Both the position numbers and the translations under genes were made by a program. The notes under the pieces are model-generated. The model was not told where the DNA came from, did not search any database, and saw nothing but the letters and a program-made list of their open reading frames with translations. Of a stretch of DNA of 64,000 nt, positions 664 through 64,000 are shown in pieces. The stretch is from Escherichia coli (GTDB lineage: Bacteria > Pseudomonadota > Gammaproteobacteria > Enterobacterales > Enterobacteriaceae). The stretch lies in the NCBI RefSeq assembly GCF_024700885.2, contig NZ_CP117016.1; one strand, given 5' to 3'. Positions within the stretch are counted from its first letter, which is position 1; every line of letters starts with the position of its first letter.

Positions 664-2452
664 GGGTATCTCCTTGGACGTCTGTGAAAGTTTTTTCGGG
701 AATAAAGGTGACAACCACTTCGGTGCCACCTGATTCACGACGGCGGACGCGGCAATCGCCTCGTAAACTTTGCGCACGGTCGCGCATTATTATCATGCCG
801 TAGTGATTGCTGCGGATGGCATTTTCAGGCACGCCGCAGCCGTTATCCTGGACGGTCAGTTTGACCTGATTATCGTTTTGCGCCACCGTCACCACGACCT
901 CACTCGCTTGCGAATGTTTGAGGGCGTTACTTAATGCCTCACGGGCAATTTGCAACAAGTGGATTGCCTGATGCGAAGGCACCAGACGAGGCGGCAATTG
1001 ATAATCCAGCTTCACCGGGAAGCCAAATTTGGCGCTGTACTCTTCGCAACTCGCCTCCAGCGCTGGACGTAATCCAGGCTCGGTGAGCTGCAAGCGGAAT
1101 GTGGTGAGCAATTCACGCAACTGCGCCCAGGATGCATTCAGTTCGTTACGGATCTGACTTAACAGTTCGCGGCTGCTTTCTGGCAGCGCATCGCCCTGCA
1201 TCTGTAAACAACTCACCTGCATCTTCATGCAAGAGAGAGATTGGGCAATAGAATCATGCAGTTCGCGCGCAATGGTGGCACGCTCTTCCATCACGATCAA
1301 CTGTTGCTGACGTTCCTGATGGCGATCCAACGCCAGCGTGGCGGTGAGTTGTTCAACCAGGGTATCCACCAGTTGTTGTTGATCATGGCTAAGATGACGC
1401 CCCTGCGGCAGGGTCGCCAGCAAAATACCGTACTGCGTATGAGAGTCAGCCAGCCGCCACTTCAGGGTTGTGCCGCGATCGCCAACGGGTAATACGCCGC
1501 GCGGGCAGAGCTGGCAGCCTTTATCATCACAAGTCATATCTGGCTGGCAGGTAAACTCCTGATGATTCTCTTCATCATCAGTGTCATACACCCGCAGTTC
1601 AATATCACGTAGCAGGGTCAAATTCTGTAAGCCGTTGAGTACAGGTGACAGGCGTTCACACAGCGGGGCGCGGGAATGCAATCGGCGGTTGGCCTGCCAT
1701 AAAAAAGAGAGGATCTGATTTTTATGCTCCAGCCCGGCGGTTTTCTCCTGAACCCGCTGCTCAAGTACGGCATAACTTTCGGCCAGTTCTGCAGACATAT
1801 TGTTCAATGCAGTTCCAAGCATCGCCATTTCGTTGCGCCCGCTGATGTTTGCGCGTTGGGTAAAATCGCGATGGCTGACGGCACTCGCCATTGCCAGCAG
1901 TTGCCGCCACGGTTGTAGCAGTCGCGCCCGCAACCAGATAATAGTGAACACCAGTAAAAGTGCCATAAATACCGCCATTACCCGATGGACCAGTACCACT
2001 GTCTCAATGCGCATTTCCGTGGTGCGGTCAAAACCAGATACCAGCTGATCAAGCCCGGCAACAAACTGGCTGACATCCGCTGACACCGTTTCGCGGTTTT
2101 GTGCACGCATCAGCGCAGGGATCAGTTCATTACGCCAGTAATCTTGTAAACCCTGTAATTGCGCCAGTTGTCCGTCTCGTTCCGCTGCTCGAGTCAACTC
2201 GGCGCTAAATGCCGTTTGTTCCATTTCTTTAATTAAGGGCTTGTCTTTCTCGCTTAATGGCACTGCCGCCAACAGACGATAACTTTGCATGCGCAGCGAT
2301 CCCGCTTTGTTGATCGCATGGGCGCTACCCTGAACGCCTTGCACCAGCCAGCCAGAAACTGCCATCCCTGCCAGTCCAATAGCAGTAGAAAGCAACACAA
2401 TAAGCGCAACCTGATTAACCAGGGTGAGCGGAGAGAGACAACGTTTAAGCAT
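656..2452 (-). CDS. narX: nitrate/nitrite sensor histidine kinase NarX
   Basis: 598-aa ORF with TM segments, HAMP and histidine kinase motifs (ELHDSIAQ...); directly upstream of narL with a short overlap. Confidence 0.93.
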
Positions 2453-2548
2453 GTAAACCTCTTCCTTCAGGCTTTAAATGAGCAATAACCTTAATGAATG
2501 TGACGATACATTCTGGAATGGCAGTATTCTCGGCTATTGGCTGAAGTA

Positions 2549-2575
2549 TACCCATACCCGGAAAGAGTTACTCCT
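2549..2575. promoter_or_regulatory. NarL heptamer-like sites (TACCCAT, TACTCCT) upstream of narK
   Basis: Matches to the TACYYMT heptamer consensus at 2549-2555 and 2569-2575 in the narX-narK intergenic region. Confidence 0.35.
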
Positions 2576-2717
2576 TATTTGCCGTGTGGTTAGTCGCTTT
2601 ACATCGGTAAGGGTAGGGATTTTACAGCACCGTGAAAAATCTCATAATTTTTATGAAATCACTGTACTCACTATGGGTAATGATAAATATCAATGATAGA
2701 TAAAGTTATCTTATCGT

Positions 2718-2731
2718 TTGATTTACATCAA
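2718..2731 (+). promoter_or_regulatory. FNR box of the narK promoter
   Basis: TTGAT-N4-ATCAA (ttgatttacatcaa) about 60-70 bp upstream of the narK ATG. Confidence 0.6.
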
Positions 2732-2790
2732 ATTGCCTTTAGCTACAGACACTAAGGTGGCAGACATCGAAACGAGTATCAGAGGTGTCT

Positions 2791-4182
2791 ATGAGTCACT
2801 CATCCGCCCCCGAAAGGGCTACTGGAGCTGTCATTACAGATTGGCGACCGGAAGATCCTGCGTTCTGGCAACAACGCGGTCAACGTATTGCCAGCCGCAA
2901 CCTGTGGATTTCCGTTCCCTGTCTGCTGCTGGCGTTTTGCGTATGGATGTTGTTCAGCGCTGTTGCGGTGAACTTACCGAAAGTCGGTTTTAATTTTACG
3001 ACCGATCAGCTATTTATGTTGACTGCGCTGCCTTCGGTTTCTGGCGCGTTATTACGTGTTCCATACTCCTTTATGGTTCCTATCTTCGGTGGTCGTCGCT
3101 GGACGGCGTTCAGCACCGGTATTCTGATTATTCCTTGCGTCTGGCTGGGTTTTGCCGTGCAGGATACCTCCACGCCTTATAGCGTCTTCATCATCATCTC
3201 TCTGCTGTGCGGCTTTGCTGGCGCGAACTTCGCTTCCAGTATGGCAAACATCAGTTTCTTCTTTCCGAAACAGAAGCAGGGTGGCGCGCTGGGTCTGAAT
3301 GGTGGTCTGGGCAACATGGGCGTCAGCGTCATGCAGTTGGTTGCTCCGCTGGTGGTATCACTGTCGATTTTCGCAGTATTTGGTAGCCAGGGTGTCAAAC
3401 AGCCGGATGGGACTGAGCTGTATCTGGCGAATGCGTCCTGGGTATGGGTGCCGTTCCTTGCCATCTTCACCATTGCGGCGTGGTTTGGCATGAACGATCT
3501 TGCTACCTCGAAAGCCTCCATCAAGGAGCAGTTGCCGGTACTCAAACGGGGTCATCTGTGGATTATGAGCCTGCTGTATCTGGCAACCTTCGGCTCCTTC
3601 ATCGGCTTCTCCGCAGGCTTTGCGATGCTGTCAAAAACGCAGTTCCCGGATGTTCAGATTCTGCAATACGCTTTCTTCGGGCCGTTTATTGGTGCGCTGG
3701 CGCGTTCTGCAGGTGGTGCATTATCTGACCGTCTGGGCGGAACTCGTGTCACACTGGTGAACTTTATCCTGATGGCGATTTTCAGCGGCCTGCTGTTCCT
3801 GACCTTACCGACTGACGGGCAGGGCGGAAGCTTCATGGCGTTCTTCGCAGTATTCCTGGCGCTGTTCCTGACAGCTGGGCTGGGTAGTGGTTCCACTTTC
3901 CAGATGATTTCCGTGATCTTCCGTAAACTGACAATGGATCGCGTGAAAGCAGAAGGGGGTTCTGACGAACGTGCGATGCGTGAAGCGGCAACCGACACGG
4001 CGGCGGCGCTGGGTTTCATCTCTGCGATTGGCGCGATTGGTGGCTTCTTTATCCCGAAAGCGTTCGGTAGCTCGCTGGCATTAACGGGTTCGCCAGTCGG
4101 CGCAATGAAAGTATTTTTGATTTTCTATATCGCCTGCGTAGTGATTACCTGGGCGGTATACGGTCGGCATTCTAAAAAATAA
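2791..4182 (+). CDS. narK: nitrate/nitrite antiporter NarK (MFS)
   Basis: ORF 2785..4182; ATG at 2791 gives a 463-aa polytopic membrane protein (MSHSSAPERATGAVITDWRPEDPAFW...) recognised as NarK. Confidence 0.93.
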   Translation: MSHSSAPERATGAVITDWRPEDPAFWQQRGQRIASRNLWISVPCLLLAFCVWMLFSAVAVNLPKVGFNFTTDQLFMLTALPSVSGALLRVPYSFMVPIFGGRRWTAFSTGILIIPCVWLGFAVQDTSTPYSVFIIISLLCGFAGANFASSMANISFFFPKQKQGGALGLNGGLGNMGVSVMQLVAPLVVSLSIFAVFGSQGVKQPDGTELYLANASWVWVPFLAIFTIAAWFGMNDLATSKASIKEQLPVLKRGHLWIMSLLYLATFGSFIGFSAGFAMLSKTQFPDVQILQYAFFGPFIGALARSAGGALSDRLGGTRVTLVNFILMAIFSGLLFLTLPTDGQGGSFMAFFAVFLALFLTAGLGSGSTFQMISVIFRKLTMDRVKAEGGSDERAMREAATDTAAALGFISAIGAIGGFFIPKAFGSSLALTGSPVGAMKVFLIFYIACVVITWAVYGRHSKK

Positions 4183-11357: not shown

Positions 11358-11417
11358 AAACGCGGTGCCATTGGGCAGAATTAGCTCGGAGTAACAGGTT
11401 TTGAGTATTTACAGGAA

Positions 11418-12132
11418 GTGATGGTGGTGGGGGAAGGATTACTCAGCGCTGCGCGCTTCACCCTTCGGGTCGTTGCCTGCGGCAACGCTTTCTCGCTGGC
11501 GCTCGAGTCGCACCTTGGTCGAAGCTTCTCATCCTTCCCCGCATGGGCAGAATATTTAATTGCGGATTCGTTTGAGAGTTCACGGACTTTTGAAAAGTGA
11601 TGGTGGTGGGGGAAGGATTACTCAGCGCTGCGCGCTTCGCCCTTCGGGTCGTTGCCTGCGGCAACGCTCTCTCGCTGGCGCTCGAGTCGAACCTTGGTCG
11701 AAGCTTCTCATCCTTCCCCGCATGGGCAGAATATTTAATCGCGGATTCGTTTGAGAGTTCACGGACTTTTGAAAGTGATGGTGGTGGGGGAAGGATTACT
11801 CAGCGCTGCGCGCTTCGCCCTTCGGGTCGTTGCCTGCGGCCACGCTCTCTCGTTGGCGCTCGAGTCGAACCTTGGTCGAAGCTTCTCATCCTTCCCCCGC
11901 TTGGGCAGAATATTTAATTACGGATTCGTTTGAGAGTTCAGGGACTTTTGAAAGTGATGGTGGTGGGGGAAGGATTACTCAGCGCTGCGCGCTTCGCCCT
12001 TCGGGTCGTTGCCTGCGGCCACGCTCTCTCGCTGGCGCTCGAGTCGAACCTTGGTCGAAGCTTCTCATCCTTCCCCGCATGGGCAGAATATTTAATCGCG
12101 GATTCGTTTGAGAGTTCACGGACTTTTGAAAG
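11418..12132 (-). repeat. rtT: rtT tandem repeats downstream of tyrV (four ~178-179-bp units, each ending in the tRNA-Tyr 3' segment)
   Basis: Unit starts at 11418, 11597, 11775, 11954 (next unit is tyrV at 12133), plus a degenerate partial unit at ~11340-11417; an Arg-rich small ORF ([24 protein letters not shown], ~11458-11532, -) resembles the recalled protamine-like Tpr. Confidence 0.8.
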
Positions 12133-12135
12133 TGA

Positions 12136-12220
<85 letters not shown>

Positions 12221-23698: not shown

Positions 23699-25330
23699 AT
23701 GACCAACATCACCAAGAGAAGTTTAGTAGCAGCTGGCGTTTTGGCTGCGCTTATGGCAGGGAATGTCGCGCTGGCAGCTGATGTACCCGCAGGCGTCACA
23801 CTGGCGGAAAAACAAACGCTGGTACGTAACAATGGTTCAGAAGTTCAGTCATTAGATCCGCACAAAATTGAAGGTGTTCCGGAGTCTAATATCAGCCGAG
23901 ACCTGTTTGAAGGCTTACTGGTTAGCGATCTTGACGGCCATCCGGAACCTGGCGTCGCTGAATCCTGGGATAATAAAGACGCGAAAGTCTGGACCTTCCA
24001 TTTGCGTAAAGATGCGAAATGGTCTGATGGCACGCCAGTCACAGCACAAGACTTTGTGTATAGCTGGCAACGTTCTGTTGATCCGAACACTGCTTCTCCG
24101 TATGCCAGTTATCTGCAATATGGGCATATCGCCGGTATTGATGAAATTCTTGAAGGGAAAAAACCGATTACCGATCTCGGCGTGAAAGCTATTGATGATC
24201 ACACACTAGAAGTTACCTTAAGTGAACCCGTTCCGTACTTCTATAAATTACTTGTTCACCCATCAACTTCACCGGTGCCAAAAGCCGCTATCGAGAAATT
24301 CGGCGAAAAATGGACCCAGCCTGGTAATATCGTCACCAACGGTGCCTATACCTTAAAAGATTGGGTCGTAAACGAACGAATCGTTCTTGAACGCAGCCCG
24401 ACCTACTGGAACAACACGAAAACCGTTATTAACCAGGTAACCTATTTGCCTATTGCTTCTGAAGTTACCGATGTCAATCGCTACCGTAGTGGTGAAATCG
24501 ACATGACTTATAACAACATGCCGATCGAATTGTTCCAGAAGCTGAAAAAAGAGATCCCGGACGAAGTTCACGTTGATCCATACCTGTGCACTTATTATTA
24601 CGAAATTAACAACCAGAAACCGCCATTTAACGATGTACGTGTGCGTACCGCACTGAAACTGGGTATGGACCGCGATATCATTGTTAATAAAGTGAAAGCG
24701 CAGGGCGACATGCCCGCCTATGGTTACACTCCACCGTATACTGATGGCGCAAAATTGACTCAGCCGGAATGGTTTGGCTGGAGCCAGGAAAAACGTAACG
24801 AAGAAGCGAAAAAACTGCTGGCTGAAGCGGGTTATACCGCAGACAAACCGTTAACCATCAACCTGTTGTATAACACCTCCGATCTGCATAAAAAGCTGGC
24901 GATTGCTGCCTCTTCATTGTGGAAGAAAAACATTGGTGTAAACGTCAAACTGGTTAACCAGGAGTGGAAAACATTTCTCGACACCCGTCACCAGGGCACT
25001 TTTGATGTGGCCCGTGCAGGCTGGTGTGCAGACTACAACGAACCAACTTCCTTCCTGAACACCATGCTGTCGAACAGCTCGATGAATACCGCGCATTATA
25101 AGAGCCCGGCCTTTGACAGCATTATGGCGGAAACGCTGAAAGCGACTGACGAGGCGCAGCGCACAGCTCTGTACACTAAAGCAGAACAACAGCTGGATAA
25201 GGATTCGGCCATTGTTCCTGTTTATTACTACGTGAATGCGCGTCTGGTGAAACCGTGGGTTGGTGGCTATACCGGCAAAGATCCGCTGGATAATACCTAC
25301 ACCCGGAATATGTACATTGTGAAGCACTAA
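23699..25330 (+). CDS. oppA: periplasmic oligopeptide-binding protein OppA
   Basis: ORF 23627..25330; ATG at 23699 gives 543 aa with signal peptide MTNITKRSLVAAGVLAALMAGNVALA. Confidence 0.95.
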   Translation: MTNITKRSLVAAGVLAALMAGNVALAADVPAGVTLAEKQTLVRNNGSEVQSLDPHKIEGVPESNISRDLFEGLLVSDLDGHPEPGVAESWDNKDAKVWTFHLRKDAKWSDGTPVTAQDFVYSWQRSVDPNTASPYASYLQYGHIAGIDEILEGKKPITDLGVKAIDDHTLEVTLSEPVPYFYKLLVHPSTSPVPKAAIEKFGEKWTQPGNIVTNGAYTLKDWVVNERIVLERSPTYWNNTKTVINQVTYLPIASEVTDVNRYRSGEIDMTYNNMPIELFQKLKKEIPDEVHVDPYLCTYYYEINNQKPPFNDVRVRTALKLGMDRDIIVNKVKAQGDMPAYGYTPPYTDGAKLTQPEWFGWSQEKRNEEAKKLLAEAGYTADKPLTINLLYNTSDLHKKLAIAASSLWKKNIGVNVKLVNQEWKTFLDTRHQGTFDVARAGWCADYNEPTSFLNTMLSNSSMNTAHYKSPAFDSIMAETLKATDEAQRTALYTKAEQQLDKDSAIVPVYYYVNARLVKPWVGGYTGKDPLDNTYTRNMYIVKH

Positions 25331-48868: not shown

Positions 48869-49507
48869 ATGAAGATGAAAAACATGTCTGAAGTGTTGAC
48901 CCAAGAAAAGCTTATTTTTGTTGCCCAGAGACTAAATGCCCTCGCGCAGTCAGGCCTGACCTATTCAAAAGACGTCTTTGACAAGGAACGCTATGAAGCC
49001 TTGCGTGAAATTGCCGCTGGACTGCTGAGTTCGCAGTTTGATATTAGCCGCAATGATTTGTTTCATGTATCGGAAACGGGTTACGCGACGCCCAAAACAG
49101 ATGTGCGTGCGTTTATCCTGCGTAATAATCGTATTCTGATGGTGAAAGAGGCTGCAGATGGATTATGGAGTCTTCCTGGCGGATGGGCAGATGTTGGAGA
49201 TACACCTTCTGAAGCTGTGCGTCGAGAGGTCGAAGAAGAAACCGGATTAAAAGTCAGAGTGACTAAACTATTGGGAGTTTGGGATCGTAATCTTCACGGC
49301 CATCCGCCTTTACCCTGGCATGTTTACAAGCTGATTTTTCTCTGTGAAGAAGTAGGTGGCAGCCTGTCAATCAGCCATGAGTCACTCGATGCTGATTTTT
49401 TTGATGTCAACGACCTGCCTGAATTGTCGCTTTCAAGAATTGTGCCTGAGCAGATTGCTGTCAGCCTGAGAGTAGCGAAAGGTGATGAAAAAACATGGTT
49501 TGATTAA
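48869..49507 (+). CDS. NUDIX hydrolase with N-terminal extension
   Basis: 212-aa ORF with canonical Nudix box GGWADVGDTPSEAVRREVEEETGL (GX5EX7REUXEEXGU). Confidence 0.8.
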   Translation: MKMKNMSEVLTQEKLIFVAQRLNALAQSGLTYSKDVFDKERYEALREIAAGLLSSQFDISRNDLFHVSETGYATPKTDVRAFILRNNRILMVKEAADGLWSLPGGWADVGDTPSEAVRREVEEETGLKVRVTKLLGVWDRNLHGHPPLPWHVYKLIFLCEEVGGSLSISHESLDADFFDVNDLPELSLSRIVPEQIAVSLRVAKGDEKTWFD

Positions 49508-49530
49508 CTTTCTTCTGCAACCATTAAGGA

Positions 49531-50175
49531 ATGGCAATGATATTCAACGCTAAGGGTTTTTTATTCGATATGGACGGTACGCTGGTTGATTCAACAGCCG
49601 TAGTGGAAAGCGTCTGGAGAGATTTTTGTGCAGAATACGGTCTTGATACTCAGGCTGTGATTGCTTACGCACACGGGCGGCAAACGATTGATACACTGAC
49701 GCATTTTATTGGTGCAGGTGAGAAAACCAATAAAATCGCGGCCTCACTCGAAGAGGTTGAAATCAACACGACAGAAGGCGTTACTGAAGTAAAAGGGGCC
49801 GCTGCACTCTTATCAAAACTGCCACCGGATAGCTGGGCACTTGTTACTTCTGCAGGCAGAATGCTTGCCGAAAACAGGATGAAAGCGGCTAATCTCCCCT
49901 TACCCATAGTAATGGTGTGTGCAGAAGATGTAATGACGGGAAAACCAAGTCCCGAGGGTTACATCAAAGCAGCTTTGGCTTTGGGCCTTGAGCCTGGTGA
50001 ATGCGTGGTATTTGAGGATGCATCTGCGGGTATAAAAGCAGGGCTGGCAAGTGGAGCTTCGGTAATAGCTGTTCAGCCTGACGCTCTGGGATCATCTGAA
50101 GCCCATGCCGTCAGCGAGCTGTCTGACATTATGGTCAAGATTTCCGGAGAACGTTTCAATATCATCTGTGGTTAA
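49531..50175 (+). CDS. HAD-superfamily phosphatase
   Basis: 214-aa ORF with motif I FDMDGTLVDS and downstream HAD motifs; AAGGA Shine-Dalgarno. Confidence 0.8.
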   Translation: MAMIFNAKGFLFDMDGTLVDSTAVVESVWRDFCAEYGLDTQAVIAYAHGRQTIDTLTHFIGAGEKTNKIAASLEEVEINTTEGVTEVKGAAALLSKLPPDSWALVTSAGRMLAENRMKAANLPLPIVMVCAEDVMTGKPSPEGYIKAALALGLEPGECVVFEDASAGIKAGLASGASVIAVQPDALGSSEAHAVSELSDIMVKISGERFNIICG

Positions 50176-52401: not shown

Positions 52402-52782
52402 ATGACCGAGCGCATAGAATTTGTTTTACCTTACCCGCCGACGGTGAACACTTACTGGCGACGCCGTGGCAGCACATATTTTATCTCGGAGGAGGGAAAG
52501 CGTTATCGCCGGGCTGTGGCGCTTATTGTTCGCCAGCAGCGGCTGAAATTAAGCCTGTCCGGAAGGCTGGCGATAAAGGTGATTGCAGAGCCACCGGATA
52601 AGCGTCGTCGCGACCTGGACAATATCCTGAAAGCACCGCTGGATGCGCTGACGCATGCGGGAGTGTTAATGGACGATGAGCAGTTTGATGAAATCAATAT
52701 CGTTCGTGGTCAGCCAGTATCTGGTGGACGTCTGGGGGTGAAGATTTACCCCATAATGCATGAAGAGCAGGTCAAAAAATGA
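52402..52782 (+). CDS. rusA: Holliday junction resolvase RusA
   Basis: 126-aa ORF with the RusA-like pattern (LPYPPTVNTYWRRRG...RRRDLDN...). Confidence 0.8.
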   Translation: MTERIEFVLPYPPTVNTYWRRRGSTYFISEEGKRYRRAVALIVRQQRLKLSLSGRLAIKVIAEPPDKRRRDLDNILKAPLDALTHAGVLMDDEQFDEINIVRGQPVSGGRLGVKIYPIMHEEQVKK

Positions 52783-53600
52783 AACTGGAAGATTTACCGA
52801 AATACTACTCCCCAAAATCCCCTGGCCTGACCGATGCATCGGCCTCAACGTCAAAAGATGCGCTGAGTATCACTGATGTGATGGCCGCGCAGGGCATGAC
52901 ACAGAATCGGGCTGAGATGGGGTTTTCTGCGTTCCTGGGGAAAATGGGCATCAGTATGAATGACAGGGCGCGGGCAACAGAATTACTGGCAGATTATGCA
53001 CTCAGTCGGTGCGATCGTGTGGCGGCGTTGAGAAAACTTCCGGCAGAAATAAAACCGGTAGTGATGCGCATTATGGCTTCGTACGCTTTTGAGGATTATG
53101 CCCGCAGCGCAGCGAGTAAAAAGCAGTGCCCCTGTTGCCGAGGGGAAAAATTTATTGAAGGCGAAGTTTTTACAAACAAGGTTCAGTATCCGGATGGCAA
53201 GCCGCCAGTATGGGCAAAGTGTACGAAAGGTGTGTATCCGTCTTACTGGGAAGAATGGAAAAAAATTCGGGAGGTGGTGAAAGTTTCTTGTCCTGAATGT
53301 AAAGGGAAGGGGGAGATTTCCACTGCCTGTAAAGACTGCCGTGGGCGTGGTGTTGCCATTCATCGTGAAGAGTCGGTAAAACGTGGTATGCCTGTTATCA
53401 GAGACTGCCAGCGTTGTGGTGGTCGTGGCTGTGAAAGACTACCATCAACGGAGGCATTTAATGCCATACGCAAAGTGACGAGTGCTATCACGCTTGATAC
53501 GTGGAAAAAATCAGTGAAACGCTTTTACGATACGTTGGTGGTTCGGTTTGACATTGAAGAGGCATGGGCGGAGCGGCAGTTAAAGAGGGTAACGCGATAG
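52779..53600 (+). CDS. putative late-gene antiterminator Q (large, multi-CxxC type)
   Basis: 273-aa ORF with several CxxC pairs, immediately upstream of a PR'/tR'-like promoter-terminator pair. Confidence 0.55.
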   Translation: MKLEDLPKYYSPKSPGLTDASASTSKDALSITDVMAAQGMTQNRAEMGFSAFLGKMGISMNDRARATELLADYALSRCDRVAALRKLPAEIKPVVMRIMASYAFEDYARSAASKKQCPCCRGEKFIEGEVFTNKVQYPDGKPPVWAKCTKGVYPSYWEEWKKIREVVKVSCPECKGKGEISTACKDCRGRGVAIHREESVKRGMPVIRDCQRCGGRGCERLPSTEAFNAIRKVTSAITLDTWKKSVKRFYDTLVVRFDIEEAWAERQLKRVTR

Positions 53601-53605
53601 TGTTG

Positions 53606-53634
53606 TTGATTTTTCCCGAATCTGTGGTAAATTT
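53606..53634 (+). promoter_or_regulatory. putative late promoter PR'
   Basis: TTGATT (53606-53611), 16-bp spacer, TAAATT; located between Q and the tR'-like terminator. Confidence 0.45.
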
Positions 53635-53681
53635 GCTCTAACGATGGGCGTTTTATGCCTGACGTTAGAAGATTTTTTACA

Positions 53682-53705
53682 CCCCGCCGCCTGGCGGGTT
53701 TTTTA
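53682..53705 (+). terminator. tR'-like terminator downstream of PR'
   Basis: Stem ccccgcc/ggcggg followed by TTTTTTAT. Confidence 0.7.
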
Positions 53706-53826: not shown

Positions 53827-54024
53827 ATGCTAAAACAGCAGGATATGACAGAAACCGCCAGAGTGGTGTTTAATGAATTAAGCGTTACCGAACCGGCGAC
53901 AGTCGGGGAGATAGCGCAGAATACTTACCTTTCACGCGAACGCTGCCAGTTAATACTGACCCAGCTGGTTATGGCGGGTCTGGCAGACTATCAGTTCGGT
54001 TGTTACAGACGCCTTCAGTCCTGA
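53827..54024 (+). CDS. small winged-helix protein (possibly FaeA/PapI-like)
   Basis: ORF 53740..54024; Met at 53827 gives 65 aa with an HTH-like segment (ATVGEIAQNTYLSRERCQLILTQL). Confidence 0.4.
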   Translation: MLKQQDMTETARVVFNELSVTEPATVGEIAQNTYLSRERCQLILTQLVMAGLADYQFGCYRRLQS

Positions 54025-54035
54025 AGGCTTTTTTA
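54011..54035 (+). terminator. rho-independent terminator
   Basis: Stem gccttca/tgaaggc with gtcc loop followed by TTTTTT. Confidence 0.65.
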
Positions 54036-54174: not shown

Positions 54175-55224
54175 ATGCTTAATACTGTAAAAATATCCAG
54201 TTGTGAGTTAATCAACGCCGACTGCCTGGAATTTATCCGGTCGTTACCCGAAAATTCTGTTGACCTGATAGTCACGGACCCGCCGTACTTTAAAGTGAAG
54301 CCTGAGGGCTGGGATAACCAGTGGAAGGGCGACGATGATTACCTGAAGTGGCTGGACCAGTGTCTGGCGCAGTTCTGGCGGGTGCTGAAACCTGCCGGAA
54401 GTCTTTACCTGTTCTGTGGTCATCGCCTGGCATCTGATATCGAAATCATGATGCGTGAACGCTTCAGTGTGCTGAACCATATTATCTGGGCGAAGCCGTC
54501 CGGACGCTGGAACGGATGCAACAAGGAAAGCCTGCGGGCGTATTTCCCCGCCACAGAGCGCATTCTGTTCGCGGAACATTATCAGGGGCCGTATCGTCCG
54601 AAAGATGCCGGGTATGCGGCGAAGGGCAGTGCACTGAAACAGCATGTGATGGCCCCGCTGATTTCTTACTTTCGTGATGCGCGCGCGGCCCTGGGGATAA
54701 CGGCAAAACAGATTGCAGATGCCACAGGAAAGAAAAACATGGTGTCGCACTGGTTCAGTGCCAGTCAGTGGCAGCTACCGAATGAAAGCGATTATCTGAA
54801 ATTACAGGCGCTGTTTGCCCGGGTGGCAGAAGAGAAGCATCGGCGTGGTGAACTGGAAAAGCTCCACCACCAGCTGGTGGATACGTATACCTCACTGAAC
54901 CGGCAGTATGCGGAGCTGCTGAGTGAATATAAACATCTGCGGCGGTATTTTGGCGTGACGGTGCAGGTGCCGTATACCGATGTGTGGACGCATAAACCGG
55001 TGCAGTTCTATCCCGGGAAACATCTGTGCGAAAAACCGGCAGAAATGCTGCAGCAGATAATCAGCGCAAGCAGTCGTCCGGGTGACCTGGTTGCAGATTT
55101 TTTCATGGGGTCGGGTTCAACGGTAAAAGCGGCGATGGCACTGGGGCGTCGTGCGATTGGCGTTGAACTGGAGACCGGACGTTTTGAGCAGACAGTCAGG
55201 GAAGTTCAGGATTTAATCGTTTGA
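54175..55224 (+). CDS. orphan DNA N6-adenine/N4-cytosine methyltransferase (DPPY motif)
   Basis: 349-aa ORF with catalytic IVTDPPYF near the N-terminus and AdoMet-binding FFMGSGST near the C-terminus; no adjacent restriction endonuclease ORF. Confidence 0.8.
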   Translation: MLNTVKISSCELINADCLEFIRSLPENSVDLIVTDPPYFKVKPEGWDNQWKGDDDYLKWLDQCLAQFWRVLKPAGSLYLFCGHRLASDIEIMMRERFSVLNHIIWAKPSGRWNGCNKESLRAYFPATERILFAEHYQGPYRPKDAGYAAKGSALKQHVMAPLISYFRDARAALGITAKQIADATGKKNMVSHWFSASQWQLPNESDYLKLQALFARVAEEKHRRGELEKLHHQLVDTYTSLNRQYAELLSEYKHLRRYFGVTVQVPYTDVWTHKPVQFYPGKHLCEKPAEMLQQIISASSRPGDLVADFFMGSGSTVKAAMALGRRAIGVELETGRFEQTVREVQDLIV

Positions 55225-55273
55225 AACGGATGAGATTGCAGAATTAATTACGCACCATTATTATTCTGCTTCC

Positions 55274-55349
55274 GGCCCTTTAGCTCAGTGGTGAGAGCGA
55301 GCGACTCATAATCGCCAGGTCGCTGGTTCAAATCCAGCAAGGGCCACCA
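55274..55349 (+). tRNA. tRNA-Ile (anticodon CAU, ileZ-like) or tRNA-Met
   Basis: 76 nt; perfect 7-bp acceptor stem (GGCCCTT/AAGGGCC), D and T arms, anticodon loop CTCATAA, 3' CCA. Confidence 0.85.
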
Positions 55350-55449
55350 TCACAAACCGCCATTAGCTTATCAGGAAGAGCAGACGACACGATAACAGGG
55401 TTGTTGGTGCGGGGGCGGGTCCCCGATGGCGGTCCATTATCGGTATTCA

Positions 55450-55526
55450 GCGTTGTTAGCTCAGCCGGACAGAGCAATTGCCTTCTAAGCAATCGGTCAC
55501 TGGTTCGAATCCAGTACAGCGCGCCA
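55450..55526 (+). tRNA. tRNA-Arg (anticodon UCU, argN/argO-like)
   Basis: 77 nt; acceptor stem GCGTTGT/ACAGCGC, anticodon loop CTTCTAA, T loop TTCGAAT, 3' CCA. Confidence 0.85.
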
Positions 55527-55633
55527 TATTCATTCTTCCAGATTCCTTTCGGCAGAGCCTTATACTGAAATATACCTGGCTCAGGATATTGTTGAAAATA
55601 TTATATGTTTGTCAAAAATAAAAGTTCTGTTAA

Positions 55634-55990
55634 GTGTTGATTGAGTGTTTGTTATACGGTCTAATGGTTTTTTCAGCATTAAATATTTATCATTCATATG
55701 GTGTGGGTAGAGTGAATATTGATGAGGCGTCGGGGTGTTTCATCCTTAGGCAGCGTATTGATATAGTCAATGCAGAACGAGCAAAGGCCTTCAGCCGTTT
55801 GACAGTTTTGTTCTGTACTCCTGATCGTCTTTCGGGAAGAGACGTTATTATTCTGAATAGTGATGCTATACAGAGGGTTTGCGATGAGTTCATGGTGGCT
55901 AATTCAGAATTATTTGCTCTTGTTCAGGAGTACAACAGAATAGCCAGGACCTGTGGTATGGATGAACTTCGGATTACTCATCTGGGGTAG
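55634..55990 (+). CDS. hypothetical cargo protein in the AT-rich slot downstream of the phage tRNAs
   Basis: 118-aa ORF (GTG start; internal ATG alternatives); no recognisable motif. Confidence 0.4.
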   Translation: MLIECLLYGLMVFSALNIYHSYGVGRVNIDEASGCFILRQRIDIVNAERAKAFSRLTVLFCTPDRLSGRDVIILNSDAIQRVCDEFMVANSELFALVQEYNRIARTCGMDELRITHLG

Positions 55991-56437
55991 ATACATATCT
56001 GGATTATCACCGGTTACGGTAAAAAGTGATTGCTTACTGTTTTTGTGAATGGCATTGCAGCAGCCGGATAATGTCAGTGCTGGCTGACGGTGTGCTGGTG
56101 GCGGGTGTGGTGGTTGCTGCTTTCCCGTTGCTGAAAAAGAAAACGCCAGACTGTTAGCCGGGTATCAGTTAGCGGGAGAAATTTTTAAATACTTCACAAT
56201 TCAGGCGGTTGACTGTTGTCTGGTTTGCGGGGAGTTTGTTAAAAGAAACTGGCATGGTGAATCCCCCTGTGCGGAGGGGCAATCAGCGAGTAGGTATATG
56301 GGATAATCGCGGATTCAGGTGCTGGTACTGAATTCACCGGGAGGCACCCGGCACCATGCAATGGCACATAGCGCCACTCTCCAGCCCCTCTCCGGAGGGG
56401 CTGTTTATATTGATTTTGTCAGATGTGAGTAAACTCC

Positions 56438-56773
56438 TTATGGACTTTGTTGTTTTAGCCCATAAGGACATATTTGCAGAGTGCAACGGTTATTAAAGCA
56501 TTCATTCAATACGTTATCTGTATTTGTAGGGCATTCCTGGCTGTTTTTGATTAAATTCCAGAATGTTTTATTGAATGGTACTACGTTGTAAATGGTTACA
56601 GGCAGCACTTTGTTATTGAGCATGATGCCTGTGTGAGTCAGTGTAAATATACTTTCAGGAGGTAAGAAAGCATCCGATTGATACCAGATTATTAATTTTA
56701 TTTTACTCCATATGACTGAAAAAGATATTCCGCATGATGGCTGGATAACTGTATCAATCACAATCCACTTCAT
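56438..56773 (-). CDS. hypothetical cargo protein (Cys-containing C-terminus)
   Basis: 111-aa ORF on the minus strand with AGGAAA Shine-Dalgarno; AT-rich context. Confidence 0.4.
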
Positions 56774-57033
56774 TTAGTTTCCTTGTTTATGCCTTGCTGG
56801 TGATGTTCTGAAAAGTATAAATGATATTTTTGATTGTAAACCATAGAGCAGAATTATTTTTCTGATGTTGTTTATTGTTTATTTAAATGCAGGGTGGTTT
56901 ATATCTCGTCTTGTAGTTTATCCATGCATATCTGCTTGATGATGAGGTTTTTAATTAAGGTATGGTTTTGTGTTTTTTCTGTATTACATGTCAGGTATTT
57001 TAAAGAATCATTTTTCAGATGGTGGAAAGAACC

Positions 57034-58890
57034 ATGGCATTTAAACACTATGATGTTGTCAGGGCGGCGTCGCCGTCAGATCTTGCGGAAAAGCTGACAC
57101 ATAAAATGAAAGAGGGCTGGCAGCCGTTTGGTAGTCCGGTGGCCATAACCCCTTATACCCTGATGCAGGCGATTGCAGCAGAAGGTGATGTGGTCGTCAG
57201 TGGTGCAACTGAGCCGGAGTGGTACTACGTCATCGTACTGGCCGGGCAATCCAATGCCATGGCTTACGGTGAAGGGCTTCCGCTTCCGGATTCTTACGAT
57301 GCGCCCCACCCACGCATTAAGCAACTGGCCCGTCGCAACACAGTGACTCCCGGTGGTAAAGCATGCGCATTTAACGACATCATTCCGGCAGACCACTGCC
57401 TGCATGATGTTCAGGATATGAGCGCACTGAATCATCCGAAGGCAGACCTGAGCAAAGGGCAGTACGGCTGTGTCGGCCAGGGCTTACATATTGCCAAAAA
57501 ACTGCTTCCGTATATCCCGAATAACGCGGGGATCCTGCTGGTACCATGCTGTCGTGGTGGTTCGGCATTCACCCAGGGCGCGGAGGGGACATTCAGTGCG
57601 GACACGGGGGCCAGCCAGGATTCGGCACGCTGGGGTGTGGGTAAACCGTTATATCAGGACCTGATCGCACGCACCAAAGCGGCATTACAGAAGAACCCGA
57701 AAAATGTGTTGCTGGCGGTGTGCTGGATGCAGGGCGAATTTGACATGAGCGCTGCCACCTACGCACAGCAACCGGACCTGTTCACGGCCATGCTGAAGCA
57801 GTTCCGTACTGACCTTTCCGGATTTAACGCGCAGTGCCATGGCGGCAGTGCTGCAGTTGTACCGTGGATTTGTGGCGACACGACGTATTACTGGAAAAAC
57901 ACATACGGCACACAGTATGACTCCGTCTACGGCGCGTACAAAAACAGGGAGAGCGACAACGTTTTCTTTGTGCCGTTCATGACCGACGGTAACGGCAACA
58001 ACACGCCCACCAACTTACCGGCAGAAGACCCGGATATTGCTGATGCAGGTTATTACGGCGCGCAATCCCGTAGTAATGGTAATTGGGTATCGTCAAATCG
58101 TCCGACACATTTCAGTTCATGGGCGCGCAGGGGCATTATTTCGGATCGCCTGGCAACCGCTATTCTGAACGCAGTTGGTCGAACCAGCGCCTTCATCAGC
58201 GGTACCGCACCGGAGATTAAACCCTCGCCCGGCGGCGACACGCCATCGGGGCCGTCTGATGGTGACACATCCGTTCGTACAGTCTCCCTGCTGCCGACAG
58301 CCGGAGAGGCTGCTGCGCAGGGCTGGACCATCACCGGCGGCAGTGTTGCGCTGGAAGATGGTGTGTTTAAGGTTACCAAGCAGAGCAATAAAACCTGGTC
58401 CCTGATGCATCCGGTGGATGACGCGGTCTCCCTGCTGACACGGGGTGGCAGACTGAGCTGTAAGTTTCGACTGTCAGGCGCACTGACCAACAACCAGTTC
58501 GGTCTGGGAATTTATCTGTATACCGATGTAGCGTTACCTGACGTCGTGGCGATGACCGGGACTGGTAACCCGTTCCTGATGTCGTTCTTCACCCAGACCA
58601 CAGACGGCAAACTGAATCTGATGCATCACAAGAAAGCCGGAAACACAAAGTTGGGCGAGTTCGGGAATTACAGTAACGACTGGCAGACGCTGGAGCTGGT
58701 GTTCACCGCCGGCAGTGCCACGGTTACTCCGAAACTGAATGGAGTGGCTGGCCCGGCATTCCAGGTCATAAAAGACAGTCTGACACTGGGGCTGAATGCG
58801 CTGACGCTGACGGATATTACCAAAAATGCAGCGTATGGCGTTGAGATAGAAAGTCTGGTGCTGGAGATAAATGCACCGGCATCATCATAA
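57034..58890 (+). CDS. NanS-p-like esterase (N-terminal DUF1737-like + SGNH/sialate O-acetylesterase-like domain)
   Basis: ORF 57019..58890; ATG at 57034 with GGTGGA Shine-Dalgarno; N-terminus MAFKHYDVVRAASPSDLAEKLTHKMKEGWQPFGSPVA; same position as the large esterase downstream of stx in Stx phages. Confidence 0.6.
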   Translation: MAFKHYDVVRAASPSDLAEKLTHKMKEGWQPFGSPVAITPYTLMQAIAAEGDVVVSGATEPEWYYVIVLAGQSNAMAYGEGLPLPDSYDAPHPRIKQLARRNTVTPGGKACAFNDIIPADHCLHDVQDMSALNHPKADLSKGQYGCVGQGLHIAKKLLPYIPNNAGILLVPCCRGGSAFTQGAEGTFSADTGASQDSARWGVGKPLYQDLIARTKAALQKNPKNVLLAVCWMQGEFDMSAATYAQQPDLFTAMLKQFRTDLSGFNAQCHGGSAAVVPWICGDTTYYWKNTYGTQYDSVYGAYKNRESDNVFFVPFMTDGNGNNTPTNLPAEDPDIADAGYYGAQSRSNGNWVSSNRPTHFSSWARRGIISDRLATAILNAVGRTSAFISGTAPEIKPSPGGDTPSGPSDGDTSVRTVSLLPTAGEAAAQGWTITGGSVALEDGVFKVTKQSNKTWSLMHPVDDAVSLLTRGGRLSCKFRLSGALTNNQFGLGIYLYTDVALPDVVAMTGTGNPFLMSFFTQTTDGKLNLMHHKKAGNTKLGEFGNYSNDWQTLELVFTAGSATVTPKLNGVAGPAFQVIKDSLTLGLNALTLTDITKNAAYGVEIESLVLEINAPASS

Positions 58891-59040
58891 AAAGTGAGCC
58901 AGTCAAATGGAAGGTATCGTTAAACTCACCGGTAGTGTCAGTGGGTCGTCTGAGATGCCTGCATGAGTTATCAGAGCCATCAGTACTTAACTGGTGGCTT
59001 TTTTTATTGTTGTCAGCTTCCGGATAACGGGAGACGGGGT

Positions 59041-59256
59041 ATGTACCAGATGGAAAAAATCACAACAGGTGTGTCATACACCACGTCAGCGGTGGGAACG
59101 GGCTACTGGTTCCTGCAGTTGCTGGACAGGGTTTCCCCGTCTCAGTGGGCGGCAATAGGCGTGCTGGGGAGTCTGCTGTTTGGGCTGCTGACATATCTGA
59201 CTAACCTGTATTTCAAAATCAGAGAGGACCGTCGTAAGGCTGCACGGGGAGAGTAA
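59041..59256 (+). CDS. phage-21-type pinholin (class II holin, dual-start motif)
   Basis: ORF 58963..59256; [71 protein letters not shown] (71 aa), two Met starts three codons apart. Confidence 0.8.
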
Positions 59257-59302
59257 TTCAATGACTCAAAACTATGAACTGATTGTGGGTAATGACTCCA
59301 AC

Positions 59303-59806
59303 TTATTGATAGTGTTTTATGTTCAGATAATGCCCGATGACTTTGTCATGCAGCTCCACCGATTTTGAGAACGACAGCGACTTCCGTCCCAGCCGTGCCA
59401 GGTGCTGCCTCAGATTCAGGTTATGCCGCTCAATTCGCTGCGTATATCGCTTGCTGATTACGTGCAGCTTTCCCTTCAGGCGGGATTCATACAGCGGCCA
59501 GCCATCCGTCATCCATATCACCACGTCAAAGGGTGACAGCAGGCTCATAAGACGCCCCAGCGTCGCCATAGTGCGTTCACCGAATACGTGCGCAACAACC
59601 GTCTTCCGGAGCCTGTCATACGCGTAAAACAGCCAGCGCTGGCGCGATTTAGCCCCGACGTATCCCCACTGTTCGTCCATTTCCGCGCAGACGATGACGT
59701 CACTGCCCGGCTGTATGCGCGAGGTTACCGACTGCGGCCTGAGTTTTTTAAATGGCGGAAAATCGTGTTGAGGCCAACGCCCATAATGCGGGCGGTTGCC
59801 CGGCAT
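59303..59806 (-). CDS. insB: IS1 transposase InsB
   Basis: 167-aa [53 protein letters not shown]... Confidence 0.95.
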
Positions 59807-60000
59807 CCAACGCCATTCATGGCCATATCAATGATTTTCTGGTGCGTACCGGGTTGAGAAGCGGTGTAAGTGAACTGCAGTTGCCATGTTTTACGGCAGT
59901 GAGAGCAGAGATAGCGCTGATGTCCGGCGGTGCTTTTGCCGTTACGCACCACCCCGTCAGTAGCTGAACAGGAGGGACAGCTGATAGAAACAGAAGCCAC
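59725..60000 (-). CDS. insA: IS1 protein InsA
   Basis: 91-aa [46 protein letters not shown]... Confidence 0.95.
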
Positions 60001-60451
60001 TGGAGCACCTCAAAAACACCATCATACACTAAATCAGTAAGTTGGCAGCATCACCCTGATTGTGAAAGGGATCCGCAATTTTGAGAATAAAGTTACGGTA
60101 ACTTTAGCGTTACGGGACAAAAAACGCTTTGACGGTGAAATTTTTGACCTGGACATCTCGCTGGACCGTGTTGAAGGTGCCACGCTGGAGTTTTATGAGG
60201 CAGCAGCCAGAAGGAGCATCAGACAGGTCTTCCTGGATGTTGCTGCCGGGTTATGTGAAGGGGATGAGCAGTCGCCGGAAAAGCGCCCCGTAATTTTAGA
60301 GGCGCAGAATGTATGGATAACCTACAAAGGAAAGCTACCGGGAATAATTACTGGTTCTCTGAAGACTCCTCCGGAATCACAACCTTAAGTCACTGACCGG
60401 AACAGATAAACCTGTCCGTGGGCAGAAACCGATAAATCCTGATAAATATCC

Positions 60452-60985
60452 ATGAACACCAAAATCAAATACGGCCTGTCGGCTGCCGTTCTGGCGCTGA
60501 TTGCCGCTGGTGCGCCTGCGCCTGACATTCTCGACCAGTTTCTGGATGAAAAGGAAGGTAACCACACCACGGCATACCGTGATGGCGCGGGTATCTGGAC
60601 CATCTGCCGCGGTGCCATCCTGGTGGATGGCAAACCTGTCGTTCCTGGCATGAAGTTGTCGAAGGAAAAATGCGACCGGGTTAACGCCATTGAGCGTGAT
60701 AAGGCGCTGGCATGGGTGGAGAAAAACATCAGAGTGCCATTGAGTGAACCCCAGAAAGCGGGGATCGCGTCATTCTGTCCGTACAACATTGGCCCCGGTA
60801 AGTGTTTTCCGTCGACGTTTTATAAACGAATTAATGCAGGTGATCGCAGGGGAGCGTGTGAGGCGATTCGCTGGTGGATTAAGGACGGTGGCAGGGACTG
60901 CCGTATTCGCTCAAATAACTGTTACGGTCAGGTATCCCGTCGTGACCAGGAGAGCGCGCTGGCGTGCTGGGGAATCGACAGATAA
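60452..60985 (+). CDS. SAR (signal-anchor-release) endolysin, phage-21 R-type lysozyme
   Basis: 177-aa ORF with N-terminal hydrophobic SAR segment (GLSAAVLALIAAGAPAP) and lysozyme catalytic region (E...D...T). Confidence 0.85.
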   Translation: MNTKIKYGLSAAVLALIAAGAPAPDILDQFLDEKEGNHTTAYRDGAGIWTICRGAILVDGKPVVPGMKLSKEKCDRVNAIERDKALAWVEKNIRVPLSEPQKAGIASFCPYNIGPGKCFPSTFYKRINAGDRRGACEAIRWWIKDGGRDCRIRSNNCYGQVSRRDQESALACWGIDR

Positions 60986-61076
60986 GCAGAATATTTTGCT
61001 AATAAATGACGTTGGCCAAGGCGGATGGATAACACGAAATCCTGCGAACTGGCAAAATGTAAGTGAATAAAAGTAA

Positions 61077-61115
61077 AAACCCCGTTTGTTGGCAGCAAGC
61101 GGGGTTTTGTTTTTA
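61077..61115 (+). terminator. terminator-like hairpin downstream of the endolysin
   Basis: Stem aaccccg/cggggtt with 15-nt loop followed by TTGTTTTT. Confidence 0.5.
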
Positions 61116-61179
61116 TGGCAGTAAGCTATGGGAGGCTGCCTTGATTGATTTTAGCAAACTGATTAGGGAGTTGCGACTC

Positions 61180-61275
61180 ATGATTAGTCAATTACCAAAC
61201 TGGAAATTTTTGCTGGTCTGGAGCATCCCTTTTTTATGGGTAGTATCCCAGTTAATTGTGGCAATTAAGGGGTAG
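61180..61275 (+). CDS. candidate small membrane peptide (31 aa)
   Basis: AGGGAG then ATG; MISQLPNWKFLLVWSIPFLWVVSQLIVAIKG. Confidence 0.3.
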   Translation: MISQLPNWKFLLVWSIPFLWVVSQLIVAIKG

Positions 61276-61277
61276 CT

Positions 61278-61409
61278 ATGTCAGACAAACTCATAACGCC
61301 GGCAAAGGTCCTGTGTGTGATTGTCGGTATTTCATTTTCACTAATGCTGGTTGCTCTTTTTCTGTCCTTCGCCTGGGTGATGTTGTCTTCGTCGGGGCTG
61401 CTGGGGTGA
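61278..61409 (+). CDS. candidate small membrane peptide (43 aa)
   Basis: AAGGGG then ATG; MSDKLITPAKVLCVIVGISFSLMLVALFLSFAWVMLSSSGLLG. Confidence 0.3.
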   Translation: MSDKLITPAKVLCVIVGISFSLMLVALFLSFAWVMLSSSGLLG

Positions 61410-61528
61410 CAGTGACTGATGACATCAGCAGAGCGCTGGCTTTTGCTATTAAGTGGGTGGCTGTTGGTATTGCTGTGTCTCCGATGCTGTATGGGCTGGC
61501 AAAACTGGTCATTGCGCTGAAATCGTGA
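61406..61528 (+). CDS. candidate small membrane peptide (40 aa)
   Basis: GTG start overlapping the previous stop (GTGA); VTVTDDISRALAFAIKWVAVGIAVSPMLYGLAKLVIALKS; similar to the next peptide. Confidence 0.3.
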   Translation: MTVTDDISRALAFAIKWVAVGIAVSPMLYGLAKLVIALKS

Positions 61529-61539
61529 ACTTTAAAAAG

Positions 61540-61626
61540 ATGAGTGCTGAACTTATTCGGGCAATGGCATTTGCCATTCGTATTGTGGCCATTGCTGTTC
61601 TGGTCTGGGCAATCCGTTGGTGGTGA
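61540..61626 (+). CDS. candidate small membrane peptide (28 aa)
   Basis: [28 protein letters not shown]; stop 1 nt before the Rz start. Confidence 0.3.
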
Positions 61627-61627
61627 T

Positions 61628-62122
61628 ATGAACCGTGTTCTGTGTGTGGTGATTATTGTCCTGCTGGTAGCCTGTGGTGTGCTTAGTCTGGGGCTGAATC
61701 ATTACCGCGATAACGCCATCACCTACAAAGCGCAGCGCGATAAAAAAGTCAGTGAGCTGAAACTGGCGAATGCCACTATTACTGACATGCAGCAGCGCCA
61801 GCGAGATGTCGCTGCGCTTGATGCCAGATACACGAAGGAATTAGCCGATGCGAGAGCTGAAAATGAAACTCTGCGCGCTGATGTTGCCGCTGGTCGTAAG
61901 CGCCTGCGGGTCAACGCCACCTGCCCCGGTACCGTGCGTGAAGCCACCGGCACCTCCAGCGTGGATAATGCAACCGGCCCCCGACTGGCAGACACCGCTG
62001 AACGGGATTATTTCATCCTCAGAGAACGGTTGATGACAATGCAGAAGCAGCTGGAAGGGGCGCAGGAATATATCCGCACTCAGTGCACTAAGCTGGCTTT
62101 TTATTATCCGGAGGATACATGA
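61628..62122 (+). CDS. i-spanin Rz
   Basis: ORF 61544..62122; Met at 61628 gives 164 aa with N-terminal TM helix and coiled-coil periplasmic domain; embedded Rz1 frame. Confidence 0.8.
61863..62033 (+). CDS. o-spanin Rz1 (lipoprotein embedded in Rz in the +1 frame)
   Basis: [15 protein letters not shown] lipobox followed by a proline-rich mature peptide, entirely inside Rz. Confidence 0.8.
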
Positions 62123-63440: not shown

Positions 63441-64000
63441 GTGCTGACAACGCAAAAACGAAAATTTGCGCTGGCGCTCATGTCCGGGAAAAACAAAACA
63501 GCGTCAGCCATTGCCGCCGGTTATTCGGCGAAGACCGCCAGGGTTAAAGGCTCGCAGCTGGCAAAAGATCCGGAGGTGCTTGCGTTTATAGCCCGTAAAC
63601 AATGCGAGACGGTGGAGGTGGATGAGGTTCCTGTTTACCGGCAGAAAAAATCAGAGCAGGAGGATAAACCCCGTCGCCGTGAGGCGGCTGCAATACCACA
63701 GCCGGACGAAAACAATCCGGAGATGCCACCGTCCGCGGTGATGTCTCCTGGTATTGAATATATGGAGGATGGTCTTCCCGATCCGGTGAAAGCCATGGGG
63801 CGGATCCTGGTGGAAAACCTCTGCATTGATCCGAAACTGGCACTGGATGCGGCCTGGCGTCTGGCGCAGTTCACGCACCATAAAAAAGGGGATACCGGGA
63901 AAAAATCGGCAAAAGGTGATGCCGCGAAAAAAGCGGCTAACCGTTTTGCGGTGCCACCGCCACCCCGACTGGTGGTGAATAACGATAATGAGGGCAACGG
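63441..64000 (+). CDS. terminase small subunit (5' partial; runs off the window end)
   Basis: GTG at 63441 preceded by GGAGGAGG; the frame is open to position 64000 (VLTTQKRKFALALMSGKNKTASAIAAGYSAKTARVKGSQLAKDPEV...); not in the ORF track because no stop lies within the window. Confidence 0.7.
   Translation, partial: MLTTQKRKFALALMSGKNKTASAIAAGYSAKTARVKGSQLAKDPEVLAFIARKQCETVEVDEVPVYRQKKSEQEDKPRRREAAAIPQPDENNPEMPPSAVMSPGIEYMEDGLPDPVKAMGRILVENLCIDPKLALDAAWRLAQFTHHKKGDTGKKSAKGDAAKKAANRFAVPPPPRLVVNNDNEGN

Follow-up and report, generated by a model that had tools for sequence, protein, structure and literature searches.

An insertion sequence that lands among the lysis genes of a prophage raises the question of what it has done there: how it arrived, which gene it broke, and whether the lysis genes downstream of it can still be expressed. 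We addressed this question for an IS1 element in Escherichia coli, in a stretch of 64,000 nucleotides that was analysed as a whole (the window). An earlier note on this DNA had placed the IS1 between the pinholin and SAR endolysin genes of a prophage, and suggested that it may be polar on endolysin and spanin expression and leave the prophage lysis-defective.

The window comprises E. coli chromosome (narLXKGHJI, adhE, opp, tonB, and ompW) and a lambdoid prophage integrated beside ompW. The prophage is a stx-less relative of the Stx phages and has the layout of a Stx phage. Its late region begins with the gene for the antiterminator Q, a PR'-like promoter, and a tR'-like terminator, which are followed by a DNA methyltransferase gene, two tRNA genes, an STnc100 sequence, iraM, a gene for a NanS-p-type SASA esterase, the holin gene, ydfR interrupted by IS1, the lysozyme gene, a 640-bp block, and Rz/Rz1 (Table 1). 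The PR'-like promoter (~53606-53640, TTGATT...TGgTAAATT) was recognized by eye only and was not called as a promoter by the consensus scan. A nearly identical copy of this DNA is found in strain MLI114, which was isolated from human stool in Mali, and where the counterpart of the window extends from ~3016912 down to 2953686 of NZ_CP117013.1. The Q protein is identical in the two strains. In MLI114 the counterpart prophage runs on into terminase, capsid, and portal genes, and in the window strain further prophage defects could lie past position 64000, where the view ends.

Several features of the surrounding DNA are of interest in their own right. The usual position of stx (54175-58890) is occupied by the DNA methyltransferase gene, the tRNA genes, a DUF3927 ORF, iraM (which encodes an anti-adaptor, on the minus strand), and the esterase gene, whose product has 623 aa. 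The tRNA genes, at 55274-55349 and 55450-55526, are at the position of the Stx-phage tRNAs; the one with a CAT anticodon is assigned to Met by ARAGORN and to Ile by RefSeq (presumably ileX-type), and the second encodes tRNA-Arg(TCT). An Rfam match to the STnc100 sRNA on the plus strand (56223-56412), which scores 132 bits where the gathering score is 47, lies between iraM and the DUF3927 ORF and runs as far as the terminator at 56382-56403. The early-right region (48869-50175) encodes a NUDIX hydrolase and a HAD-family hydrolase followed by hokD, with names taken from the MLI114 annotation; these are cargo genes and are unrelated to the IS1 insertion. On the chromosomal side, four tandem RtT units of ~178 bp, ~97% identical to one another, are found downstream of tyrT-tyrV (11416-12154) and are a normal K-12-like feature.

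Table 1 Features of the prophage late region and of the IS1 insertion, with positions in the window
Feature	Position	Strand	Description
Q	52779..53600	+	Late-gene antiterminator, 273 aa, two Pfam Antiterm (PF03589) domains
tR'-like terminator	53683..53698	+	Strong intrinsic terminator just downstream of the PR'-like promoter
Terminator	54011-54028	+	Strong intrinsic terminator
Terminator	56382-56403	+	Strong intrinsic terminator
Terminator	58973..59001	+	Strong intrinsic terminator directly upstream of the holin gene
Holin (S)	59041..59256	+	71-aa class II holin of the phage 21 S type; PF04971, phrog_9876/20
ydfR, 5' fragment	59261..59287	+	Codons 1-9
Target duplication, left copy	59279..59287		9 bp, CTGATTGTG; ydfR codons 7-9
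IS1	59288..60055	-	Complete, 768 bp, IS1B type; transposase genes antiparallel to the late operon
IS1 right inverted repeat (IRR)	59288..59310		GGTAATGACTCCAACTTATTGAT; distal to insA
insB	59303..59806	-	Open reading frame; NF033558
insA	59725..60000	-	Zinc-finger/HTH portion of the transposase, 91 aa; NF033558, NF050000
IS1 left inverted repeat (IRL)	60033..60055		
Target duplication, right copy	60056..60064		9 bp, CTGATTGTG
ydfR, 3' fragment	60065..60388	+	Codons 10-116 plus stop
Lysozyme (R)	60452..60985	+	SAR-like N-terminal segment, E35/D44/T50; phrog_7
Terminator	61076..61108	+	Strong intrinsic terminator in the 640-bp block that separates R from Rz
Rz	61628..62122	+	Rz-like i-spanin; phrog_13, E = 1e-77
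Rz1	61848-62033		Rz1-like o-spanin, embedded in Rz; phrog_3198, E = 3e-31

Simple transposition of IS1 into ydfR

All of the defining features examined identify the element as IS1. It starts with GGTAATGACTCCAACTTATTGAT and finishes with the reverse complement of GGTGATGCTGCCAACTTACTGAT, and its termini, GGTAATGACTCC... and GGTGATGCTGCC..., are identical at 18 of 23 positions, so that it has both the imperfect terminal inverted repeats of ~23 bp and the length of ~768 bp that characterize the IS1 family. Both halves of the transposase match the NCBIfam model NF033558, 'IS1 family transposase'. At window positions 59743-59749 (IS1 position 307) the element retains an intact A6C frameshift motif, TTTAAAAAAC, and InsAB' is the product of a -1 frameshift at this motif. 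Many chromosomal and plasmid copies of IS1 are identical to the element over all 768 bp; RefSeq labels these copies 'IS1-like element IS1B family transposase' and annotates them with 'programmed frameshift'. A promoter-like site for insA on the minus strand (60048->60021) overlaps IRL. Given its intact sequence and very recent insertion, this copy of IS1 is predicted to be competent for transposition.

Exactly 768 bp separate the two perfect copies of the nonamer CTGATTGTG, and target duplications of the IS1 family are 9 bp long (rarely 8-14 bp). The nonamer has no further occurrence on the plus strand of the window and a single one on the minus strand, and the chance of finding the same 9-mer at two fixed positions is ~4^-9 = 4e-6. 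The empty site, in WP7-S17-ESBL-04 as well as in MLI114, contains CTGATTGTG once. The locus therefore shows a simple transposition of IS1 into ydfR, with a 9-bp duplication and no later rearrangement, and the junctions it created can be represented by the 30-mers ACTATGAACTGATTGTGGGTAATGACTCCA and CAGCATCACCCTGATTGTGAAAGGGATCCG. In this process, a standard IS1 with intact transposase genes entered codons 7-9 of ydfR, with the staggered cut of the target giving rise to the duplication of CTGATTGTG. The earlier note had described a complete 768-bp element between identical repeats, inserted by simple transposition, and its coordinates and structural details for the element all proved correct.

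When IS1 and one copy of the repeat are deleted, the reading frame is restored without a seam to a 116-aa ORF, MTQNYELIVKGIRNFENK...PPESQP. The split after codon 9 is as previously described, while the length of ~117 aa given for the ORF is revised to 116 aa. The restored ORF matches Pfam DUF1327 (PF07041) with E = 7e-43, residues 1-112 aligning with positions 1-92 of the 93 in the model, and it also matches phrog_406 (PHROG 406, unknown function). Its location in a lambdoid prophage, with the class II holin gene on one side and the lysozyme gene on the other, is that of YdfR/DUF1327 genes, and the identical uninterrupted gene at the same position in relatives is named 'YdfR family protein' by RefSeq. 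NCBIfam contains no model that matches YdfR, the holin, the esterase, or the spanins. The earlier note had allowed that the continuity of the frame might be coincidental were the uninterrupted ORF absent from all relatives. Relatives do carry it, and this objection falls: uninterrupted ydfR is present at a query coverage of at least 80% in 1,902 of 5,426 complete E. coli genomes, and homologues are found in 101 phage records, including those of Stx1a-, Stx2a-, and Stx2c-converting phages, H-19B, and mEp460. The family seems to be confined to Escherichia and Shigella (331 clusters). Long forms of 176-183 aa have an extra C-terminal tail that looks helical, and in a few database entries the DUF1327 and holin (PF04971) domains are joined in one ORF, which may reflect frameshifts or gene-calling artefacts.

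What remains of ydfR is a 5' fragment, whose frame continues into IS1 as far as 59368 and encodes a 35-aa stub, and a 3' part in which an in-frame GTG at 60062 opens a 108-aa ORF with no obvious Shine-Dalgarno sequence and no internal Met. An alignment of 25 YdfR family sequences has invariant residues at M1, E6, L7, V9, and K10. An AlphaFold2 model of YdfR, of moderate quality (mean pLDDT 64.5), has three strands and a helix within residues 5-73, with pLDDT of 70-89 over residues 1-70 and below 50 past residue 72, and its first β-strand is predicted at residues 5-14. Because of these invariant residues and the position of this strand, insertion after codon 9 is predicted to cut a conserved structural element of the protein. 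A Foldseek search with the model returned no match in the PDB at E <= 0.001. The direct consequence of the insertion would be the loss of YdfR, with the stub stopping after 35 aa inside IS1 and the remainder of the protein lacking both its conserved first β-strand and an evident ribosome-binding site. We infer that loss of YdfR is most likely the net effect of the insertion. The functional data found for the family concern the YdfR of the K-12 prophage Qin alone: its residues 1-72 mediate binding to the catalytic N-terminal half of RNase E, and the protein co-purifies with RNA, may bind it, and alters few transcripts when overproduced (PMC13232886).

Expression of the lysis genes downstream of IS1

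Homology and sequence features uphold the description of the insertion as lying between a pinholin and a SAR endolysin. The holin matches PF04971, 'Bacteriophage P21 holin S', with E = 1e-32, has a dual start at M1/M4 (MYQMEK...), and stops 4 nt ahead of the ydfR ATG. Residues 8-24 of R, GLSAAVLALIAAGAPAP, are hydrophobic and 59% G/A/S, which makes the segment SAR-like by sequence, and R matches the PDB lysozymes 3hde, 3hdf, and 4zpu with E ~1e-15, the first two of which we take to be R21. The block between R and Rz (60986-61627) is also present in MLI114 and WP7-S17-ESBL-04; its tiny hydrophobic ORFs belong to PHROGs 6632 (within 61063-61275), 4906 (61278-61409), and 4493 (within 61453-61626), of unknown function. 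The phage 21 S and R genes, when cloned, are enough for lysis, and because of this it is unlikely that YdfR is essential for the process.

In a rival reading, which develops the suggestion of the earlier note, IS1 exerts strong polarity on late transcription, endolysin and spanins are consequently under-expressed, and the prophage cannot lyse its host; this would be a step in its domestication. IS1 is classically polar in both orientations, as established in work on gal and λ. On the strand of the late operon, the RNA of IS1 is untranslated after codon 35 of the interrupted frame, which leaves ~690 nt without translation, and for ~360 nt of this RNA, from 59320 to 59680, C exceeds G with a ratio of 1.2-1.5. 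This C-rich stretch is a plausible Rho loading region. There is also one weak terminator-like hairpin at 59915-59929, and other E. coli prophages readily yield examples of lysis cassettes with IS1 insertions or IS1-bounded truncations. As for an outward promoter from IS1, the plus strand between 59288 and 60452 has no promoter-like site in the consensus scan, which detected only the insA promoter on the minus strand.

Against this reading stands the way in which the late operon is expected to be transcribed. Because at least four strong terminators lie between Q and S and another lies between R and Rz, Q-antiterminated polymerase is required, and S, R, and Rz would be transcribed solely by Q-modified, terminator-resistant RNA polymerase. 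For λ, Q has been described in a recent review as 'a proven polarity suppressor' of Rho-dependent polarity, with Q-loaded complexes shielded from Rho (PMC12360218), although this resistance to Rho is a property shown for λ Q and Q82, whereas the Q encoded here is of the duplicated-domain PF03589 type. With its tandem PF03589 domains and a match to a DnaJ-type CXXCXGXG zinc finger, this Q looks internally duplicated. Translation of R also appears to be independent of the broken gene: the R start codon lies 63 nt past the ydfR stop codon (60386-60388), and because of this distance R is not translationally coupled to ydfR.

Insertions of IS629 in the late operons of Stx2a prophages provide a natural precedent. 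In thirteen Stx2a phages IS629 splits an ORF downstream of stx2, and in one phage it lies in the putative lysozyme gene; DNase-protected phage DNA was recovered in all of these cases, which indicates that the phages are still released, although the DNA came from filtered supernatants of induced cultures, in which lysis by co-resident prophages may be a confounding factor (PMC4587872). A literature search yielded no primary paper that bears directly on the polarity of IS1 under antitermination.

Together, the five strong terminators, the λ Q precedent, the uncoupled R gene, and the IS629 phages argue against polarity on R and Rz and against the lysis defect, neither of which is supported by our analysis. 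We consider strong polarity of IS1 on the late transcript unlikely. Because Q-modified polymerase already has to pass terminators and is known to resist Rho, and because R has its own start, induction of the prophage probably still leads to expression of R, Rz, and Rz1, and retention of lysis despite IS1 has a high probability. Some drop in R and Rz expression is conceivable, and perhaps expression of the lysis genes is slightly reduced or delayed.

Age of the insertion and IS1 elsewhere in lysis cassettes

Alignment with an IS1-free homologous prophage, the comparison proposed by the earlier note, was possible with MLI114. After removal of IS1 and one repeat copy, positions 36000-64000 of the window align with MLI114 over 27,224 bp with 0 mismatches and 0 gaps. 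The rest of the window (1-35999) has one difference, T/C at 24214, which is synonymous in oppA. The whole 64-kb window is thus the same as MLI114 apart from IS1 with one copy of the repeat and one synonymous SNP. Because an otherwise identical IS1-free prophage exists in MLI114, the insertion must be very recent, as judged from this pair of sequences.

Searches specific for the junctions found the same IS1 insertion in none of the 5,426 complete E. coli genomes. The lone apparent full-length match among genomes, in strain E18, is a false join, with IS1 upstream of the holin gene and ydfR intact, and a match in CUPF06 was rejected as two pieces spread across 521 bp. In an exact-product look-up, the 35-aa stub had no record and the GTG-initiated 108-aa remnant was found in six contigs; an origin from an IS1 junction was rejected for these, as the two that were read start inside intact ydfR (AAACTATGAACTGATTGTGAAAGGG) and are truncated by the contig end.

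The nearest junction is that of ST131 isolate 46 (locus L004, NZ_OX637964.1, 2567-3384), in which IS1 lies 17 bp away. That IS1 has the same orientation but belongs to a different sequence variant; it interrupts ydfR 17 bp beyond the site described here, after ...GATCCGCAATTT, and is an independent event. At its far end lies a truncated tail-tip gene, an arrangement suggestive of a deletion, mediated by IS1, that removed the remainder of the lysis and morphogenesis region. In the Qin-like cryptic prophages of E. coli O78 strain 3 and EECO1006, IS1 (2012-2781 of locus L005 and 2234-3003 of locus L006) truncates the lysozyme gene, with ydfR intact just upstream. From these sequences, IS1 damage to lambdoid lysis cassettes is recurrent, and the sites differ.

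The proximity of two independent insertions could mean that the 5' end of ydfR is a preferred target of IS1, or that the insertion was selected because removal of YdfR benefits the lysogen. IS1 prefers AT-rich targets, and the A+T content of the target region is 60-63%, compared with 50.5% for the window. The insertion in ST131 isolate 46 shares both the gene and the orientation, and the binding of Qin YdfR to the N-terminal domain of RNase E and its co-purification with RNA (PMC13232886) also count in favour. However, among 5,426 genomes only two events were found at this spot of ydfR, and neither is common to a lineage. Genomes with an intact ydfR are very frequent, and the other IS1 matches nearby are elsewhere, either within the lysozyme gene or ahead of the holin gene. 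Further, overproduction of Qin YdfR had a small effect on transcripts (PMC13232886), and because the late operon is silent in the lysogen, ydfR should not be expressed there. Preferred targeting or selection is consequently very improbable as an explanation for the insertion. Two IS1 sites within 17 bp of an AT-rich patch hint at a local target preference, and a hotspot is not established. The fuller version, in which the first 45 bp of ydfR are a recurrent target of IS1 and insertions are retained through loss of an RNase E-binding protein or through retuned timing of lysis, is a long shot; if true, the window strain would form with MLI114 a natural isogenic pair in which to study the role of YdfR in lambdoid lysis cassettes. 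The chance that the feature is not real, but an assembly artefact or a chance repeat, is negligible: IS1 is multicopy and can be misplaced in assemblies, but both junctions are exact, the flanks rejoin a known gene to the single base and match MLI114 perfectly, and the 9-bp duplication is a hallmark of IS1 that would not arise from misassembly.

A simple, very recent transposition of IS1 into ydfR is an event already known in kind, with a known element entering a known gene family in a manner that is routine in E. coli prophages. Insertions of IS elements are the usual source of differences between closely related E. coli prophages, and the insertion itself matters little. The value of the locus lies in the clean natural pair formed by the window strain and MLI114. 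This pair could address whether YdfR, which is conserved in many Stx-phage and lambdoid cassettes, has a part in lysis or in phage yield, and whether antitermination by Q erases the polarity of IS1 in a native late operon.

Comparison with known systems

The element does not differ from known IS1 of the IS1B/IS1R type from E. coli and its plasmids, with which it shares its length, terminal repeats, insA and insB', A6C motif, and 9-bp duplication. The insertion site alone, at codons 7-9 of ydfR in the prophage at ompW, is unmatched in the 5,426 genomes. The cassette resembles that of phage 21 (S21-R21-Rz-Rz1) in its P21-type holin with a dual start, the Gly/Ala-rich N terminus of its lysozyme, and an Rz1 embedded in Rz. 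In contrast to phage 21, it has ydfR as an additional gene between S and R, and its R and Rz are separated by the 640-bp block, which contains three tiny hydrophobic ORFs and a strong terminator.

The interrupted gene belongs to the same Pfam family as the ydfR of Qin in K-12 and occupies the same place between a class II holin and a lysozyme. The restored protein has 116 aa whereas that of Qin has 103 aa, the gene is interrupted here, and at the DNA level only the first 58% of it aligns with Qin ydfR in K-12-type genomes, with ~89% identity.

The closest parallel to the insertion is provided by IS629 in the Stx2a prophages of O157:H7, where an IS element in a Q-dependent late operon likewise splits a small ORF or a lysis gene, and is what chiefly distinguishes prophages that are otherwise identical (PMC4587872), as IS1 does here. 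IS629 belongs to the IS3 family rather than to IS1, and it is found in other prophages, which carry stx2a. In its place, the prophage described here carries the NanS-p-type esterase, iraM, and tRNA genes.
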